A stretch of 64,000 nucleotides of DNA from the sequence record OM362897.1. The stretch is one strand, 5' to 3'. The translations under genes and the position numbers were made by a program. Source of the stretch: Escherichia phage SKA64. The notes beneath the pieces were generated by a model, which made no database searches, was not told the origin of the DNA, and was given only the letters and a program-made list of their open reading frames with translations. Of this stretch, positions 28,182-38,866 are shown in pieces. Positions within the stretch are counted from its first letter, which is position 1, and each line of letters begins with the position of its first letter.

Positions 28182-28787
28182 ATGCAACATAGTGTAGTAG
28201 TCAACATGCCGAATAGTGGGGATAAATCTTTTGGTGTCCCTGCTAAAAAAGTGTGGAAAGCCCATTTTCATCTTACTTTATCTAACGTTAGTTCTGAAGA
28301 GTTGATGAAAGCAGCTAAGATTATTGGTGCCAAATGCACAACAATTGATTTACATCGGGATACAAAGTCTCAACGTGATCGTATGTTAACAAAGTATCAA
28401 AGCGATCTCGACACTACTTTAATGTTGCAGTGTGTAGAAAAACTTGAGAATGCAGGTTTCAATGTTGTTCGTTACAAACTGGAACGAATGTTTAAACATG
28501 TTGCCTGTGTTCTTTTCATGGATCTAAGTAAAGAAAATTACGGAGAAGTTCACATTAAGACTTCAGCAAGTGATCCCGAAGTAGAAACAAACTTCTTCCG
28601 TATTTCTTCTAATGCTGAAGAAATTGATTACCGATTTTATAATGCTCGCTTATATTCCGCAGAAGATAAGTTGCGTTTCAATGAAGCGTATGATATGCTC
28701 TTGAACAGTGGGATACAGATAAAAGGCTACCACATAGAACAAGTGGTAGTGGACAGTAATCTTAACTTAGACGCATGGTGGGCTTAA
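28182..28787 (+). CDS. hypothetical protein (201 aa)
   Basis: ORF track; GAGGAGA RBS; single HLTL motif, no confident family. Confidence 0.55.
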   Translation: MQHSVVVNMPNSGDKSFGVPAKKVWKAHFHLTLSNVSSEELMKAAKIIGAKCTTIDLHRDTKSQRDRMLTKYQSDLDTTLMLQCVEKLENAGFNVVRYKLERMFKHVACVLFMDLSKENYGEVHIKTSASDPEVETNFFRISSNAEEIDYRFYNARLYSAEDKLRFNEAYDMLLNSGIQIKGYHIEQVVVDSNLNLDAWWA

Positions 28788-28788
28788 T

Positions 28789-29445
28789 ATGACTATTAAA
28801 CATATCTCTTTTGATGTATGGAACACACTGATCACAGCAAACTCCAATTACGCAGACATGCGAGCCTGGACTATCGCAAAATATGGAGATATTACGGAAG
28901 TTGAAGCAAGAGCAGCTTATAAAAAGATCAAAAAGGAACTGGATAATGCAGCACTTCAAGGCAAAGCCGAGTGTGCAGCATACGCCTGGGAAAGACTTGG
29001 TTCTGAACTTGGGATAACGCCTTGGAAGTCTGCAAAGCTTCGTTTCGAGTGTGAACAGTGGTTCCTTAAGTTTCCACCACACGTAGCCGTAGATCTGCCG
29101 ATGTACTTGCTGTATCTTTCTGGGCGTTATGATTTGAGTATTAAGAGCAATACCAACTTCATATCAGGGGATATTCTGCGTCGTGCTTGTAAGTTTGATA
29201 GTTGGAATTGTTTTGAGTTCACCCATTTCTCGGATGAAGCTTTACTTTGTAAACCAGATCCGCGATTCTTTGCTCGCACGCTCACGTATTCTCCGATCCC
29301 TCTGTTAGGGCACGAAGTGTTGCACGTAGGCGATAGTGAAGAATATGATGGAAAATGTGTTGACTTAGGGTTTAACTTCTGTCATATTAAGAACCCTAAC
29401 GACTTACTAGAGAAACTTAAAAGAGGAGAAATTGTAAATGCGTAA
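28789..29445 (+). CDS. HAD-superfamily hydrolase-like protein
   Basis: motif I FDVWNTL (dehalogenase-type DxYGT-like), motif IV VGDSEEYDG. Confidence 0.55.
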   Translation: MTIKHISFDVWNTLITANSNYADMRAWTIAKYGDITEVEARAAYKKIKKELDNAALQGKAECAAYAWERLGSELGITPWKSAKLRFECEQWFLKFPPHVAVDLPMYLLYLSGRYDLSIKSNTNFISGDILRRACKFDSWNCFEFTHFSDEALLCKPDPRFFARTLTYSPIPLLGHEVLHVGDSEEYDGKCVDLGFNFCHIKNPNDLLEKLKRGEIVNA

Positions 29446-30265
29446 TCAAACTCAAATTTTTGCAAATAAATTTGATGACCTGGAAACTGCTACTTTTGAT
29501 ATCCAAGATTATTCAAAATTGAAATTTGGTAGTAACCAAGCTGCGCGTCGTATGGGTAAAGAATTGGCACTTCAGTTTTTTGCTCAAGTGGCAATGAAAC
29601 ATATTGGGGAACAATTTGTTATCATTCCTTCTCCTTACAACCATGTGCATAATGCTGCAACAATGATGACAGATCATTTTATTAATTACTTCAATATGTT
29701 GCAAGCACAATATGATCAAGGTCGTTCAGCAGAACTGGACATTATTCATCGTAAAGTTAGCTATATCAACGATTATGGTTTCTTGGATAAAGCTAGTCGT
29801 AAGAAACTTATTGATGGGGATACATTCTACTGTAACAAAGAATTCTGGGGTGATAAGAAGCTTGTGTTTATTGATGATGTAAATATCACTGGAACTCATG
29901 AAGACAAACTGATTGAGATCCTTGATGAAAATCAAGTTAAAAATGATGTTTACTTCTTGTATTTTGCAAAATACGAAGGTAATCAAGCAGATACCGAAGC
30001 TAAACTGAATTTTAATTATATTAATACACCAGAAGCGTTTGTTAAAATGATTAATGAAGAACGTGATGCACAGTGTCTTGTTCGTCCTATTAAGTATCTT
30101 ATGGGCCAAAATCACGAAGACTTCAAAATCATTCTTAGCCAATTACCACACTACTATGTAGAGCAACTTTTCTTCGGATGTTTGGGAGAAGGTTACAACC
30201 GAATTTCAAAGTATGCCGAAAACTTTGAATTCTTGGATCGTTACACAAAACAACACATTCTGTAA
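29438..30265 (+). CDS. phosphoribosyltransferase (type I PRTase fold)
   Basis: PRPP-binding motif KKLVFIDDVNITGT. Confidence 0.6.
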   Translation: MRNQTQIFANKFDDLETATFDIQDYSKLKFGSNQAARRMGKELALQFFAQVAMKHIGEQFVIIPSPYNHVHNAATMMTDHFINYFNMLQAQYDQGRSAELDIIHRKVSYINDYGFLDKASRKKLIDGDTFYCNKEFWGDKKLVFIDDVNITGTHEDKLIEILDENQVKNDVYFLYFAKYEGNQADTEAKLNFNYINTPEAFVKMINEERDAQCLVRPIKYLMGQNHEDFKIILSQLPHYYVEQLFFGCLGEGYNRISKYAENFEFLDRYTKQHIL

Positions 30266-30278
30266 TAAGGAGCTAAAA

Positions 30279-30752
30279 ATGCTTAAAATGAAAACAGGTA
30301 ATCTTATTGATGCCGCTAAAGCAGGTGAAGTAACTGTTATTGCTCATTGTTGCAATTGTATGTGTAATATGGGGGCAGGTATTGCCCCACAAATCAAACG
30401 AGCATTTCCTTACGCATATGCAGCAGACTTAGACACAATGGCTGGTGATCAAAGTAAACTAGGTTGTTTTAGTTTAGGGGTGCCAGACGAACAATCAGAT
30501 CCTTTGGTATATAATCTATACGGGCAGTATCGTTATGGATACAATGCTAAAGGTCGTCAGTTGGACTATGATGCACTTTACGATGCACTAATAGCTATGG
30601 CTAACGATTTGCTTCTCCGTGACCAAAAATGTAAGATCGGCTTACCTATGATTGGCGCTGGATATGCTGGAGGTAATTGGGCTATCATCCAAGTGATGAT
30701 TGAAGAAACTTTAGTAAAAACAGGTCACGATGTGACTATTTATAAACTTTAA
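30279..30752 (+). CDS. macro-domain protein (ADP-ribose binding/processing)
   Basis: start at ATG 30279 after TAAGGAG; N-terminal segment NLIDAAKAGEVTVIAHCCNCMCNMGAGIAPQI and C-terminal LPMIGAGYAGGNW resemble macro-domain signatures. Confidence 0.5.
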   Translation: MLKMKTGNLIDAAKAGEVTVIAHCCNCMCNMGAGIAPQIKRAFPYAYAADLDTMAGDQSKLGCFSLGVPDEQSDPLVYNLYGQYRYGYNAKGRQLDYDALYDALIAMANDLLLRDQKCKIGLPMIGAGYAGGNWAIIQVMIEETLVKTGHDVTIYKL

Positions 30753-31065: not shown

Positions 31066-32040
31066 ATGCAACTTGGTTTCCCCATTATTGATGTAGTTGT
31101 TTTAGTTGGTATTTTAGCATTGTCTATTGGTATCGATTTCTTTGGTCACAAAGAAAATAAAGAAATTTCATTCAAATCCGCAGTTGATTGGTCGATCTTT
31201 TGGATTGGTGTATCATTAGCTTATTATGGTTTTGTATACTTCCAACATGGTGCCGATTTTGCTAACTTGTTTTTAAGTGGATATGTGTTGGAAAAATCTT
31301 TGTCGGTAGATAACTTAGTAGTATTTGTAGCAGTATTCGCAAGTTTTGGTATTAAAAGCACACACTTGCAGCACAAGATTCTACTTTGGGGTATTGCAGG
31401 TGCGATTGTCTTCCGAGGTGTGTTTGTAGCAGTAGGCACTTACTTGTTAAGTTTGGGCTGGTATGTTAATATCTTCTTCGGTGCGGTCATCCTTTTCTGT
31501 GCAGCTAAAATGGTATTTGCTGGAGATAATGACGCAGAAGTTGATTACTCTAAACACTGGGCTACCCGTATTGTTCGTAAACTGTTCCCTGTATCTAATA
31601 AAATGGATGGGGAGAAGTTCTTCACAATCGAAAATGGTGTTCGTGTAGCAACTCCAGCTTTGGTTTGCGTATTCGTGATGGAAATGGTGGATGTAATCTT
31701 TGCAGTAGATTCGGTTCCAGCGGTGATCGCAGTGACACAAGAACCCCTACTTGTATTCTCTTCGATGTTATGTGCAATCTTAGGTCTACGTGCTCTGTTC
31801 TTTGTTCTTAGTGTCGCACTGAAGTATCTGGTTCACTTGGAGAAAGCAGTTATTGTGGTTCTGGTGTTTGTAGGCGTTAAACTGATGTATCACCCGTTTG
31901 CAGAAACATTGCATGAGAAAATGAGTTTCCTGCCAGCACATATTGATCCAACTATTAGTATGTATATCGTGCTTGGTACTTTGGCCCTTGGTGTTATTGC
32001 AAGCTTTATCTTCCCTGAAAAAGAAGAAGCTACTATTTAA
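31066..32040 (+). CDS. TerC/Alx-family integral membrane protein
   Basis: multi-pass membrane protein; LSGYVLEKSLSVDNLVVFVAVF and FGAVILFCAAKMVFAGD blocks resemble TerC/Alx family. Confidence 0.8.
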   Translation: MQLGFPIIDVVVLVGILALSIGIDFFGHKENKEISFKSAVDWSIFWIGVSLAYYGFVYFQHGADFANLFLSGYVLEKSLSVDNLVVFVAVFASFGIKSTHLQHKILLWGIAGAIVFRGVFVAVGTYLLSLGWYVNIFFGAVILFCAAKMVFAGDNDAEVDYSKHWATRIVRKLFPVSNKMDGEKFFTIENGVRVATPALVCVFVMEMVDVIFAVDSVPAVIAVTQEPLLVFSSMLCAILGLRALFFVLSVALKYLVHLEKAVIVVLVFVGVKLMYHPFAETLHEKMSFLPAHIDPTISMYIVLGTLALGVIASFIFPEKEEATI

Positions 32041-32045
32041 TAAAT

Positions 32046-32070
32046 GAGCCTCCTTCGGGAGGCTATTTTA
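32046..32070 (+). terminator. rho-independent terminator
   Basis: AGCCTCC-TTCG-GGAGGCT followed by ATTTTAT. Confidence 0.65.
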
Positions 32071-32082
32071 TAGGAGAGACTT

Positions 32083-32433
32083 ATGAGTAATTTTGATGAA
32101 ATTCAAGAACTTGTTTGGGATTTATCTGGTGATGTGGATTACATTTCAGATTATCTTTCAAAAGTTTACCCTGGGGTAAGCGTTATGATTGTGACCAAAG
32201 ATCCAATTAGTTTGCCTCCCAATGTTGTAGCTTGTTGTGGAAGTGGTTCAGGAGAAGTAGAGCCTGTATCTCGTTGGGAATTAACTAAAGCTGTTTCAAA
32301 ACGAAACGGTGAAGTTTTGAATATTGATATTGAGCAAATATGGACTTCTCCAGCAGCCAAATGGAATGATCCAAATGGTTGGGATTTGTTCTTCTGGGAT
32401 AATGAGACTGATGATGAGGTGTTTTTAAAATGA
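32083..32433 (+). CDS. hypothetical protein (116 aa)
   Basis: ORF track; AGGAGAGA RBS. Confidence 0.6.
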   Translation: MSNFDEIQELVWDLSGDVDYISDYLSKVYPGVSVMIVTKDPISLPPNVVACCGSGSGEVEPVSRWELTKAVSKRNGEVLNIDIEQIWTSPAAKWNDPNGWDLFFWDNETDDEVFLK

Positions 32434-32675
32434 AATACTTGTTGGTTGTGTTTGAAAATATCTGTTTTGCAATAGGGTTGTTTGTTGTAATTTTTGTATT
32501 GACAAGCGTAATCAACGGCAGTAAAGTGAGTTTATACCGAGATGGAGAGCAACTTTATTGCTTCTCTGGAGATTTCAAACACAGATGTATTAATAGCCAA
32601 AACGAGGAAAGCAAATATGAAAAAACTAGCCCTGATTTTAATTGGTTGTATCTTTTTAACAGCTTGCGAGGATGA
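32430..32675 (+). CDS. small membrane protein (81 aa), overlaps next gene
   Basis: ORF track; ATGA start overlap; hydrophobic N-terminus; 3' end overlaps lipoprotein gene by 59 nt. Confidence 0.35.
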   Translation: MKYLLVVFENICFAIGLFVVIFVLTSVINGSKVSLYRDGEQLYCFSGDFKHRCINSQNEESKYEKTSPDFNWLYLFNSLRG

Positions 32676-33054
32676 AACAAATCCTGCACAATACCAACAA
32701 CCTCCTCAACAATACGCTCAACAAGGATCTGACGGAGATACAACTATTATCAACAATGGTGGCGGTTCTAGTAGTAGCGGTGTTGGTGAGTTTGCTACAG
32801 GTATGTTGTTAGGGCATATGATGAGTGGCGGTAGTAATCGTAGCAGTGGGGATTATAACGATAACAGAACGATTATTAATAAGCATTATAATACACCTAA
32901 ACCGAAAACTAATTTTTATGGTAAGCCTAAACAAGAGATAAAAACTTATGAAAAGCCGAGACAAACTTTTAAAACAAATAGTAGCTATACAACTCGTAAA
33001 TCTTACAATAGCCCTTTAAGTAAAAAGAGTTCATCTCGTAGCAAGCGACGTTAA
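32617..33054 (+). CDS. lipoprotein with Gly/Ser-rich linker
   Basis: start ATG 32617 after GAGGAAAG; signal peptide plus lipobox LTAC; GGGSSSSG low-complexity segment. Confidence 0.6.
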   Translation: MKKLALILIGCIFLTACEDETNPAQYQQPPQQYAQQGSDGDTTIINNGGGSSSSGVGEFATGMLLGHMMSGGSNRSSGDYNDNRTIINKHYNTPKPKTNFYGKPKQEIKTYEKPRQTFKTNSSYTTRKSYNSPLSKKSSSRSKRR

Positions 33055-33068
33055 TAAGGAGAAAAACA

Positions 33069-33662
33069 ATGACAATTTCTATTCGTACTTCCATTACAGG
33101 TGTTAAAAGTTTGCCTAATGCTTTGCAAATCACACGTGCTTTGAGGGATACGTTCTCTGCTGTGGATGAGCATAAGATGCTCGATAATCTCTCAAATTGG
33201 CCCTATTTTCATTATTTTAAAAATGAAGACGACGAGTTTATAGACGCTGTTTCTTACGGTTATGATTTCGGTAAGGAGGTTTCCCCTGAAGAATTTGTAG
33301 CTACGGTGTTCCCAAACGGTTTGCCTACTCGCAGTAAACGTAAAAAAGGACCAAAAAACAAGAAACGTGCTACTAATAAAGCTACCATTTTCTTTACTGA
33401 TGGCACACAATATACGATTAAAGACTTTGAAGAGGTATCTTATACAGCAGGTGGGAGTCTTTCTTTCTACACCATCAAAAAACAAAACTATACGTTCAGC
33501 CATGTTTCTAACATGATTGAAATGTTAGTAGAAGATATTGAAAGCGTGGCTGTGTTAGGTATGCATAAAAGCTTTTTAATTACAAATATTTCAGATTTCA
33601 GTGCAAGTTTATCTGGCCCTGATTTTGAAGCCACGACCACGCATTTCGCTTTTAAGGTGTAA
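33069..33662 (+). CDS. hypothetical protein (197 aa)
   Basis: ORF track; TAAGGAGAAAA RBS. Confidence 0.6.
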   Translation: MTISIRTSITGVKSLPNALQITRALRDTFSAVDEHKMLDNLSNWPYFHYFKNEDDEFIDAVSYGYDFGKEVSPEEFVATVFPNGLPTRSKRKKGPKNKKRATNKATIFFTDGTQYTIKDFEEVSYTAGGSLSFYTIKKQNYTFSHVSNMIEMLVEDIESVAVLGMHKSFLITNISDFSASLSGPDFEATTTHFAFKV

Positions 33663-33665
33663 GTT

Positions 33666-34256
33666 ATGCATACCGAGAGAGACTTGCAACTCTTGTGGTG
33701 GGAAGTGATGCAGGAAATAAAAGAAGATTTTCCTGTTTACTACAACATGTTACGTGAAGCAGGATATAAAGCTTGTGTTAGAAACAAAGTGAATAACTCT
33801 TTCGGTTGGTGCAACTACCGAGATAAAATTGTTGTTGTAAATTGGCACTTGCATAAGAACTCCACAAGAGATATGATCGTGGATACAATGAAGCACGAAA
33901 TTGCTCATGCTATTGATGGTTGTATGGGTAAGTTTAGTAGGCACGGTGCTCATTGGCAAAAACTGGCAGCAGAATTAGGGGCTAATCCTAAAGCCACTTC
34001 CAAAGAGCCGTTGAACCACGAATATAAATATGTTCTTGTTCTGGTAGATAGGTTTGCGACAAGATGTGTTAGAGGTTATAATCGTAAACCTAATCGCATG
34101 TACCCAGGTAAGCAACCTAATATGTGGTTGAAATCAGATAAAGAAGGGACCGAAGGAAAATTATGGTTGTATAAATGGGACGATTGGGTTAAAGTAGCTA
34201 AAGAGTACGGTGTTTCACCATATATAAGAGATGCAGAAGAGGAGAATGAAGAATGA
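33666..34256 (+). CDS. SprT-like zinc metalloprotease domain protein
   Basis: HExxH motif in MKHEIAHAIDG followed by HGAHW. Confidence 0.5.
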   Translation: MHTERDLQLLWWEVMQEIKEDFPVYYNMLREAGYKACVRNKVNNSFGWCNYRDKIVVVNWHLHKNSTRDMIVDTMKHEIAHAIDGCMGKFSRHGAHWQKLAAELGANPKATSKEPLNHEYKYVLVLVDRFATRCVRGYNRKPNRMYPGKQPNMWLKSDKEGTEGKLWLYKWDDWVKVAKEYGVSPYIRDAEEENEE

Positions 34257-35365
34257 CAAGTCCATTTTTAAAAGCAGCTACTGGTGGTCAGAAGAAGCCT
34301 GAAATGAGCGTATTTGCTGCAACAACAGATGCAAGTAAATCTGTATTCGCTCCAAGCGTGTTAGATGCCAGTCCTGTTTATGCACCAGCGGCACCGCAAG
34401 AAGTTCCAGTTTTGCCTTCTATGACCCGACAAGAGATTGAAGAGATTGGGGCAGAGGCAGGAACAACCTTGCGTTCCTTGAATGCCGAGGTGTTAAAACA
34501 TCAACGTAGTAATCAAGGCGATCAGATGAGTGAACGACTCACAGCTTTGATTAAACAGGCAAAACAACTTGATCCAAACTCTATTAAACAAAGCAAGGGT
34601 ATTACTAAACTCATTAAAAAAGTTATGGGTATGAAAGAAGACCTGTTCGGGGAGTTTGATAATGTTAATAACCGTATTGAAGAGTTGGTAAAGAACCTTC
34701 AAATGGATATTCGCAAAGAAGAAGATTCCTTGGTATATCTTGAAAAGCTACATCAAGCTATTGGACAATATGCTGCAAGTTTGAACCGAGATATGCAGCT
34801 TCTAACAGCAACCTATGAAAAAGAAGAACAAGCTTTGGCTGCTCTTCCAGAAGATGCAGTAGAACAGCGACAAGTGATCCGAGATACTTTGGATCTTCTG
34901 GAGATTCGTATTGCAGATTTAAAAGCATTGCGCCTACTGTGTGTCCAAATGGGACCGCGTGTACAAGGTATGCAAAAAGTTTCTGCAAGCTTAATGCGAT
35001 CTGCGCGTAACATAGTAAATAATGTTATTCCTGCTTACTCTGCTAACTTCTCAATGTATATCGAGAGCTTACGTCAAATGAAAGCAGCAGAGACGCAGAA
35101 TAACGTTCTTGATGAATTTAACCTGGCAATTAAACTGGGTAGCGATCTTGCCACACAGAATCAGATCGAAGCAGCAGCACTGGCTAACCGTCAAGTGTTG
35201 GATATTGAAACTCTGCGTCACGATCAGGAAAACTTGGTTAAGATGCTGGAAGAAACTAACCGCATCAATACGGAAGCCCGTGCTGCTCGTGTTGATTATA
35301 TTAATGAAGTTCAATCTCTGGAAGACGGGATGGTAGCTGCTGTGAAACGAGGGCTTGGTAAATGA
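34253..35365 (+). CDS. coiled-coil protein, TelA-like candidate
   Basis: 370 aa, largely helical with heptad-like repeats; assignment is contextual (sits in Ter-type cluster). Confidence 0.3.
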   Translation: MTSPFLKAATGGQKKPEMSVFAATTDASKSVFAPSVLDASPVYAPAAPQEVPVLPSMTRQEIEEIGAEAGTTLRSLNAEVLKHQRSNQGDQMSERLTALIKQAKQLDPNSIKQSKGITKLIKKVMGMKEDLFGEFDNVNNRIEELVKNLQMDIRKEEDSLVYLEKLHQAIGQYAASLNRDMQLLTATYEKEEQALAALPEDAVEQRQVIRDTLDLLEIRIADLKALRLLCVQMGPRVQGMQKVSASLMRSARNIVNNVIPAYSANFSMYIESLRQMKAAETQNNVLDEFNLAIKLGSDLATQNQIEAAALANRQVLDIETLRHDQENLVKMLEETNRINTEARAARVDYINEVQSLEDGMVAAVKRGLGK

Positions 35366-36958: not shown

Positions 36959-37753
36959 ATGTCCGAGAAAATCAGCCTGAAAAAACGTCAAGAAAACCTT
37001 GCTTTCTCTCTGAAAAAGAATAAGAACCTGAATGAAGGTAAGATTGTTCTTCGTGTAGCATGTGCTCTAGATATTTCTGGTAGTATGCATGGTCTATATT
37101 CTAGTGGGGTAGTGAGTGATTTTGTAGGTAAACTGCTTCCTTTTGGTATGTTGTTCGACGATAATCAACAAATTGATATGTGGGCCTTCAATACGAGTTC
37201 CCAAGAGCTTACTCCAGCAACAGCAGACGTTTACGACGACTATGTTGGTAAATGTATGCGTAATGTTCGTATCGGAGGTGGAACAAATTACGCCCCTGTA
37301 ATGGCAGATATCTACGATGAGTATTTTGGCACTGTTACCAAATATATTACCACTAAACAAGTGGTACAAGAGGAGGCTCCAAAGAAAGGCTTCTTTAATC
37401 GTCTGCTTGGTAAAACTGAAACAGTGTCTGTAGAGCGTGAAAAAGTTGTAGCTGTATCAGAACCAGGTGCTGACGTTACCCCTGGTGTTGTATTCTTCCA
37501 GACGGATGGTGAGAATGGTGATCCTAGTGCTGTTCGTCGTCTTATCGAAGAGAATAAGAATAAACCTATTTATTGGTTCATGGTTGGCGTTGGTAATGAG
37601 AAGTTTGGCTTCCTGAAAGAACTGGCAAATGCTTATGATAATGTTGGTTTTATTGGCATTAAAGATTTAGACTTGACAGATTCAGAGCTTTATGACAAAC
37701 TCTTATCTGAAGAGTTCGGAGAGTGGGTTGTTAAAGTAGGTGCTAAAAAATGA
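36959..37753 (+). CDS. von Willebrand factor A domain protein (TerY-like)
   Basis: MIDAS motif DISGSM; N-terminal ISLKK/FSLKK repeat shared with TerD gene. Confidence 0.7.
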   Translation: MSEKISLKKRQENLAFSLKKNKNLNEGKIVLRVACALDISGSMHGLYSSGVVSDFVGKLLPFGMLFDDNQQIDMWAFNTSSQELTPATADVYDDYVGKCMRNVRIGGGTNYAPVMADIYDEYFGTVTKYITTKQVVQEEAPKKGFFNRLLGKTETVSVEREKVVAVSEPGADVTPGVVFFQTDGENGDPSAVRRLIEENKNKPIYWFMVGVGNEKFGFLKELANAYDNVGFIGIKDLDLTDSELYDKLLSEEFGEWVVKVGAKK

Positions 37754-38263: not shown

Positions 38264-38866
38264 ATGACTGATAAAATTTCCCTGAAAAAAGGCTCTAGCG
38301 AAAAAATTTCCCTGAAGAAGGTTGCTCCGGCTCTGAAAGAACTGCGCCTGGAATTCTCTTGGAAGTCTGATTCTAAACTGGATCTGGATGTAAGTGCACT
38401 GGTTTGTCGTCACAATGCCGCTGGCAATCCTGAAATGCTGTCTGCACGTCATCTTGTTTGCTATGCTAACAAGTTTGATCCTGAACGTTCTACCTTCGCT
38501 GGTGACGATGTTCGTGATGGCACTGGCAGCATGGAGCAGATCGATATTACTCTGGCTAAAATCTCTCCTGATGCACAAGAGATTGCCTTTGTTCTGACCA
38601 TTGATGATGATACAGGTCTGAAACGTTTTGGTCATGCTTCTGAAGGTATGCTTAAAATCTTCGACTCCGAGCGCAATGTGGAAATTCTGGATTTTGACTT
38701 CCTGGCTCCTGAAGTAGCTGGCAACACAATCTGCCACGTGGCTTCCTTGGTTCGTGAAGATGGGGAATGGAAGCTGAAAGCATATGGTGTAGGCAAAGCT
38801 GGTCTGGATATTTGTGATGTGGTGATGGCCTTCGGTGGTAAAAAAGAATGGTATGAATGTCCATAA
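38264..38866 (+). CDS. TerD-domain protein
   Basis: ISLKKGSSEKISLKK...LDLDVSALVC N-terminus and GEWKLKAYGVGKAGL C-terminus resemble TerD family. Confidence 0.8.
   Translation: MTDKISLKKGSSEKISLKKVAPALKELRLEFSWKSDSKLDLDVSALVCRHNAAGNPEMLSARHLVCYANKFDPERSTFAGDDVRDGTGSMEQIDITLAKISPDAQEIAFVLTIDDDTGLKRFGHASEGMLKIFDSERNVEILDFDFLAPEVAGNTICHVASLVREDGEWKLKAYGVGKAGLDICDVVMAFGGKKEWYECP

Follow-up and report, generated by a model that had tools for sequence, protein, structure and literature searches.

The SprT-like gene and its surroundings

The window analyzed here is a 64,000-nucleotide stretch of Escherichia phage SKA64 (sequence record OM362897.1), and the gene under study occupies positions 33666–34256. 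The 8-kb region surrounding this gene shows 99% identity to Escherichia phages ESCO37, REC, tuntematon, and Mt1B1_P17 and ~96% identity to phAPEC8, matches that identify the window as part of a phAPEC8-like Phapecoctavirus (Stephanstirmvirinae). Phapecoctaviruses are virulent myoviruses of ~150 kb. Some near-identical Phapecoctavirus or Justusliebigvirus genomes are filed as Campylobacter, Acinetobacter, or Pseudomonas phages (MG065650.1, MG065689.1, OP562383.1, and OR584014.1), and these host labels are probably mislabels or reflect enrichment-culture contaminants. The genes and signals around the SprT-like gene are as follows.

28789–29445: HAD-like hydrolase (weak Pfam match, 21.2 bits, below the cutoff of 26.4)
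29438–30265: PRTase_3
30213–30752, + strand: Macro domain protein, between PRTase and TerC (Pfam E 8.9e-5, just above the cutoff)
31066–32040: TerC
32047–32064, + strand: strong, bidirectional terminator-like GC-rich hairpin, AGCCTCC-TTCG-GGAGGCT, immediately 3′ of TerC (7-bp stem, five GC pairs)
32617–33054, + strand: predicted lipoprotein, two genes upstream of the SprT-like gene (translation MKKLALILIGCIFLTAC, lipobox LTAC)
33069–33662, + strand: PHROG 27550 protein of unknown function, 197 aa, directly upstream of the SprT-like gene
33654–33659, + strand: Shine-Dalgarno-like AAGGTG, 6 nt before the ATG of the SprT-like gene and immediately preceding the stop codon of the upstream gene
33666–34256, + strand: SprT-like zinc metalloprotease gene (196 aa, ATG start, TGA stop, stop codon included)
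34253–35365, + strand: TelA-like gene, immediately downstream of the SprT-like gene (Pfam TelA, E 3.2e-33)
36959–37753: vWA-TerF-like gene
38264–38866: TerD

The preliminary description of this DNA had placed the protease gene inside a Ter-type cluster. That cluster is real, with TerC, TelA, vWA-TerF-like, TerD, PRTase_3, and Macro domain genes all found together with the weakly matching HAD-like gene. Small ORFs lie between the hairpin and the lipoprotein gene and again between TelA and the vWA-TerF-like gene; a SleB-type endolysin gene follows TerD. The genes nrdD/nrdG lie upstream of the block, and the replicative helicase gene lies downstream. The same description had set the protease gene between the lipoprotein and TelA. 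TelA does adjoin it, its ATG overlapping the stop codon of the SprT-like gene within the sequence ATGA (34253–34256), but the lipoprotein gene does not, as the PHROG 27550 gene intervenes. The overlap is not conserved: in relatives that are 46–49% identical, from a Klebsiella phage and a Logan contig, it is replaced by a 9-nt gap. The lipoprotein CDS is annotated with the same start in PV191315.1, and a signal peptide is annotated on its phi92 homologue, gp180.

The lipoprotein, PHROG 27550, SprT-like, and TelA genes share one strand, with no strong terminator-like site between them. The terminator scan gave a weaker match at 32164–32181, inside the first gene of this unit, and no terminator-like site on the + strand between 32182 and 36154. 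The hairpin at 32047–32064 is thus likely to be the upstream end of the transcription unit that holds the SprT-like gene and TelA, and it would split the Ter-type genes into at least two units, one comprising HAD, PRTase, Macro, and TerC and the other running from the lipoprotein through TelA.

Two other proteins of the block drew our attention. The Macro domain protein is kept in all Stephanstirmvirinae loci that we examined, and in Pseudomonas phage phiPsa347, a homologue (E 5e-30) is encoded beside a NAMPT gene, ~3 kb away from TelA. Phage Ter blocks may therefore have some connection to ADP-ribose or NAD metabolism. The HAD/PRTase block begins with the gene for a 201-aa protein (28182–28787, + strand) that matches PADLOC “AbiEi” models (E 4.7e-13 and 4.4e-12) and no Pfam or NCBIfam family. 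Its homologue in Klebsiella phage phi1_175008 is annotated as a “MazG-like pyrophosphatase,” and phmmer gave no match to it in phi92-type loci.

For the SprT-like gene itself, we adopted the start at 33666 because of the Shine-Dalgarno-like AAGGTG and the N-terminal homology: PHROG 6445 and homologues at 46–66% identity align from residue 1. The shorter start used in PV191315.1 (Met15, 14 codons downstream) was dropped on the same grounds. An opposite-strand ORF of 69 aa (33750–33959) was set aside as a shadow ORF without support. PV191315.1 labels the gene “SprT-like family protein,” and most other records carry “hypothetical protein”; the naming of the gene as SprT-like is, therefore, already public in at least one GenBank record.

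Protease and C-terminal domains

The protein is made up of two domains and a short tail, with the following features.

33666–33998, + strand, residues 1–111: metalloprotease (zincin) domain, with two N-terminal helices, a three-stranded sheet, the active-site helix, and a helix past the third His
33894–33908, + strand, residues 77–81: HEIAH (H77, E78, H81), carrying two predicted zinc ligands and the predicted catalytic Glu
33942–33956, + strand, residues 93–97: HGAHW, with H93 as predicted third zinc ligand and W97 invariant
33999–34220, + strand, residues 112–185: basic, beta-rich C-terminal domain without cysteine pairs
34221–34253, + strand, residues 186–196: acidic disordered tail ending in EEENEE, not conserved (pI 4.05)

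The preliminary description had assigned the product to the SprT family from HEIAH and HGAHW motifs in an ORF at 33666–34256 and had proposed a profile search. Both motifs are present in that ORF, and the assignment is borne out, with profile, conserved motif, and fold all in agreement. The search placed Pfam PF10263 (SprT-like) on residues 31–107 with E 4.2e-9, at 36.7 bits against a gathering score of 25.6, and the same family is precomputed on all four of four close homologues. PHROG 6445, a family of unknown function, matched from end to end (E 1.5e-63). A word-indexed homologue search returned four close proteins, and the family became visible once 1.84 billion representative proteins were searched exhaustively with a profile, which gave 3,043 relatives at E ≤0.001 and 242 at E ≤1e-10.

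We collected 154 proteins, 150 from the exhaustive search and four from the word-indexed search. The HExxH motif is present in all but one of them (153 of 154), and the extended pattern HExxH-x(5–20)-H[GSAT]xx[WFY] fits 116. Across 50 aligned sequences, whose mean column identity is 28%, the following residues never vary: H77, E78, A80, H81, H93, W97, and G105. By this comparison, the motif match is more than a chance HExxH. A direct sequence search of the PDB returned nothing useful (an HtpX fragment, E 1.3). The AlphaFold2 model (mean pLDDT 85) comprises a zincin-type domain at residues 1–111, a separate beta-rich domain at residues ~120–181, and a disordered acidic tail, and the best solved structural match to its fold is Spartan. 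Human Spartan is itself a member of the SprT family.

A profile score above the cutoff, an HExxH motif followed 11–14 residues downstream by a third His in an HGxx(W/F) context, and a zincin fold thus occur together in one protein, in which reading of the sequence found no signal peptide or membrane segment. The gene product is probably a cytoplasmic, active zinc metalloprotease of the SprT family, and we are highly confident, from the alignments and the model, that it is a functional protease of this family. One could instead suppose an inert or non-proteolytic zincin-fold protein, such as a nucleic-acid-binding protein, a scaffold, or a YbeY-like metal-dependent nuclease. The full signature of HExxH and third His, however, is invariant with the catalytic Glu included, and we consider such a protein highly improbable.

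The C-terminal domain (residues 112–185) is rich in aromatic residues, with a pI of 9.55, conserved Lys, Arg, Tyr, and Trp positions, and a single non-conserved Cys. Its conserved pattern reads KY..Y.RKP..(Y/W)L(K/R)G.K.ET.GKL. The domain is kept in most of the best 150 relatives, with an alignment occupancy of 0.8–0.9 up to about residue 170; occupancy falls to 0.14–0.34 in the tail, where pLDDT is <50 at residues 191–196. We detected no Pfam or PDB counterpart of the domain and no similarity to any solved fold. In 23 of the 154 relatives (~15%), a double-CxxC zinc ribbon stands at this position, right after the conserved KY, and no such CxxC...CxxC ribbon is found in the clade of the SprT-like protein. 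The cysteine-free domain sits where other SprT proteins carry their ribbon and where Spartan carries its zinc-binding subdomain. From this position and from the composition of the domain, we infer that it may descend from the ribbon and may bind nucleic acid. Common to many phage and bacterial relatives, the cysteine-free domain is the only slightly unusual feature of the protein.

Relationship to the Ter-type genes

The order of SprT-like gene followed by TelA is also found in a Klebsiella phage and a Logan contig, whose SprT-like proteins are 49% and 46% identical, and in IMG/VR contigs L005 and L006. This raises the possibility that the protease is a working component of the Ter module that processes or regulates TelA, vWA-TerF, TerD, or the lipoprotein, which would explain its position upstream of TelA and overlapping it. 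Such a role gains from the retention of the gene order in three diverged lineages whose proteins are as little as 46% identical, from the ATGA overlap, which suggests translational coupling, and from the terminator-bounded unit shared with TelA. The loss of the overlap in the 46–49% identical relatives counts against it, as does the distribution of the gene among phages with Ter blocks.

Justusliebigvirus phi92 and contigs L172 and L173 carry a full syntenic Ter block (TelA E 1e-181 to 1e-182, TerC E ~1e-200). No SprT HMM match was found within it, and TelA is the next gene after the PHROG 27550 homologue. Contig L174, of the Klebsiella clade, likewise keeps the Ter block without the SprT-like gene, though its TelA is 87–88% identical to that of the SprT-bearing contigs L002 and L006. 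HAD, PRTase, Macro, TerC, TelA, vWA-TerF, and TerD are all retained in phi92, L172, L173, and L174, so that the block in which the gene is missing is otherwise intact. The absence of the gene both from phi92-type phages and from L174, with its closely similar TelA, implies that the gene was lost or gained independently at least twice at a single slot upstream of TelA.

Unrelated phages with Ter genes give the same picture. No SprT-like ORF lies within 12 kb of TelA in Caulobacter phage CcrBL9, Pseudomonas phage phiPsa347, or Escherichia coli phage PBECO4. PBECO4 has a “putative peptidase” directly downstream of TelA (L088, 13157–13846); this protein has no HExxH motif and no SprT profile match and is therefore a different kind of protein.

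We also examined the surroundings of SprT relatives. Ter genes lie within 10 kb of the relative in 2 of 80 viral loci, both of Stephanstirmvirinae type, and in none of the other 78 viral loci or of 80 bacterial loci (0 of 158 more distant relatives), as judged by single-sequence phmmer searches, which could miss very divergent Ter proteins. Ter genes near an SprT relative thus occur only in the Stephanstirmvirinae-type loci (L001–L006). Nor did any other neighbor recur: with four genes considered on each side, the most frequent neighbor family was present in at most 6 of 102 non-redundant SprT groups obtained by clustering, so no function can be inferred by guilt by association.

Neither cross-lineage co-occurrence with Ter genes nor retention wherever a syntenic Ter block is kept was observed. 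In their survey, Iyer et al. 2021 (PMC7824862) list PRTase/HAD signal synthesis, TerC, TelA, TerF-vWA, and TerD as the parts of phage Ter systems; the SprT-like peptidase is absent from these parts and is treated separately, among probable host-directed proteases. We are confident, from these comparisons of gene content, that the SprT-like gene is not a core Ter component, and a working role within the module appears very unlikely. The preliminary description had called the placement of the gene unexplained. The best explanation is that the gene is a dispensable accessory occupying a single position before TelA, because close relatives keep the Ter block without the gene and distant relatives are never found beside Ter genes. 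The locus is best read as an early/middle gene block with a permissive slot that holds a lineage-specific accessory gene. The negative result is useful in itself, as it argues for leaving the SprT-like gene out when the components of the phage Ter system are listed.

Across the Phapecoctavirus records, the gene appears to be fixed and is nearly invariant. At ≥90% identity, TelA and the SprT-like gene are each found in 70 phage records, and 59 of the 70 SprT-like sequences are ≥99% identical. Against a 94%-identical relative, the gene has a dN/dS of 0.045, alongside 0.036–0.048 for TerC, TelA, and TerD, and by this measure it is under purifying selection. At depth, it has diverged ~2.5 times faster than TelA (dN 0.51 vs. 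0.20). In the comparison with L005, the SprT-like protein and TelA are 93.6% and 90.3% identical, and the PHROG 27550 protein is only 40.7% identical. This hypervariability looks like allele replacement or diversifying selection. The PHROG 27550 protein has no Pfam or NCBIfam match, and its homologues in L005 and phi92 (gp179) measure ~290 aa compared with 197 aa here. In the same comparison, PRTase_3 (79%) and vWA-TerF (73%) are less similar than HAD, TerC, TelA, and TerD (90–94%), a mosaic divergence across the Ter block that suggests internal recombination.

Several of these properties could also fit a host-takeover or counter-defense protease that cleaves specific host proteins, for example in defense or stress response, with the C-terminal domain recognizing the protein target. 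Iyer et al. 2021 (PMC7824862) propose cleavage of host proteins for peptidases of the SprT-like and ArdC-like kinds, whose distribution among jumbo phages is patchy. The present gene is an accessory gene with presence/absence polymorphism; it diverges at depth ~2.5 times faster than TelA, and it adjoins the hypervariable PHROG 27550 gene (41% identity, where the neighbors exceed 90%). Its near-invariance among phage records and its dN/dS of 0.045, however, are unlike an ongoing arms race, and the protein lacks an ArdC N-terminal domain and gave no significant match in PADLOC. (A PADLOC match to SspF was discarded as insignificant, at E 0.006 and 13 bits.) On balance, we regard a counter-defense role as unlikely, if by no means far-fetched.

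Possible function and comparison with known systems

The explanation that we prefer, with moderate confidence in it as a whole, is an accessory SprT-family protease that may be tethered to DNA and acts outside the Ter pathway. In the mechanism that we propose, H77, H81, and H93 would hold Zn2+, and E78 would serve as the general base that activates water. The C-terminal domain would provide targeting, most likely by tethering the enzyme to nucleic acid. The enzyme would then cleave proteins that are stuck to DNA or bind it tightly while the phage replicates, such as trapped topoisomerase complexes. In this it would resemble a pared-down Spartan that needs no ubiquitin, and it would do this work outside the Ter pathway.

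Proteolysis on DNA specifically is the more tentative part of this explanation. The preliminary description had called the motif typical of SprT/Wss1-like proteases that act on DNA–protein crosslinks; the crosslink activity is taken over from eukaryotic Spartan and Wss1, our comparisons do not support it, and for the present protein, a role in crosslink repair would be an analogy. Spartan is the closest solved structure, and a basic aromatic domain stands at the zinc-ribbon position. The wider neighborhood belongs to nucleotide metabolism and replication (nrdD/nrdG and the replicative helicase). Moreover, in the T4-like phages RB43 (Pseudotevenvirus, L169, 5914–6456) and Miro (Slopekvirus, L171, 4923–5477), a gene of the subfamily directly follows the topoisomerase II genes, in the order gp60plus39/gp39 and gp52, then the SprT-subfamily gene, then rIIA/rIIB. 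Covalent protein–DNA complexes classically arise from topoisomerase II. Other observations point away from DNA. The Miro annotation has a terminator between gp52 and the SprT gene, and in KVP40, the SprT gene lies between the DNA ligase region and nrdH, with no topoisomerase adjacency. The C-terminal domain has no similarity to the DNA-binding zinc subdomain of Spartan. In the window, the nearest neighbors are membrane-linked or of Ter type, and the overlap of the stop codon with the TelA start would permit a local functional link. Our literature searches for functional work on phage or bacterial SprT found only papers on eukaryotic SPRTN and descriptive mentions.

A bolder form of the DNA-directed explanation treats the cysteine-free C-terminal domain as a nucleic-acid-binding module of a new kind. 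The large group of phage SprT-like proteins would then be minimal DNA-dependent proteases that clear covalently trapped or clamped proteins off replicating phage DNA. Candidate substrates would be topoisomerase II or gyrase cleavage complexes and host proteins that block replication. We consider this proposal speculative and, on present evidence, unlikely. If true, however, these would be the first DNA–protein-crosslink proteases described for bacterial viruses, working without ubiquitin or SUMO signals, and such DNA-dependent enzymes would offer a very small, genetically tractable model for protease-based crosslink repair. The locus thus provides two leads: a basic C-terminal domain with no Pfam or PDB counterpart, and a subfamily that sits beside topoisomerase II genes in two T4-like genera. 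As it stands, the gene itself matters little, being a routinely recognizable member of a protease family that is very common in viruses and bacteria.

Among known proteins, the viral members of PF10263, which occur in many phages and large DNA viruses, are the most alike. They include gp4 of Klebsiella phage Miro (annotated “contains SprT domain”), RB43 ORF003c, a protein of Vibrio phage nt-1, and SprT-like proteases of mycobacteriophages, and they share with the present protein the profile match, the HExxH-x11-HGxxW site, and the small standalone size of ~150–220 aa. Most of the closest 150 relatives also have the same two-domain layout to about residue 170. What sets the present gene apart from the other viral members is its position inside a Ter-type block, which is unique to part of the Stephanstirmvirinae.

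Human Spartan (SPRTN, PDB ID code 6mdx) differs in the second subdomain, which in Spartan binds zinc and, beside the active site, single-stranded DNA and here lacks zinc ligands. SPRTN also carries regulatory modules, namely a basic DNA-binding region and SHP, PIP, and UBZ motifs. These are absent from the present protein, which ends at residue 196 and has no further Pfam domain at E ≤0.1. E. coli SprT (NCBIfam NF003421, “SprT family zinc-dependent metalloprotease”) belongs to the same superfamily and has the same catalytic motif. The present protein is not its orthologue, since it scores 21.1 bits against an equivalog cutoff of 175, and in place of the C-terminal zinc ribbon of bacterial SprT, it has a longer, cysteine-free beta domain. 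With respect to Wss1/WLM and ArdC, Pfam gave neither a WLM nor an ArdC-N match at E ≤0.1, and structural scores were below that of Spartan; the protein has neither SUMO- or ubiquitin-related modules nor the ssDNA-binding N-domain of ArdC. The SprT-like protein, therefore, lies outside the E. coli SprT equivalog, Spartan, Wss1/WLM, and ArdC groups. The genes that surround it match the parts list of Ter systems (Iyer et al. 2021, PMC7824862), and the SprT-like peptidase falls outside that list. By analogy, the protein may work in a Spartan-like manner in minimal form. It is an ordinary member of a known family, because SprT-like genes are already common in phages and have been noted in both the literature and GenBank.
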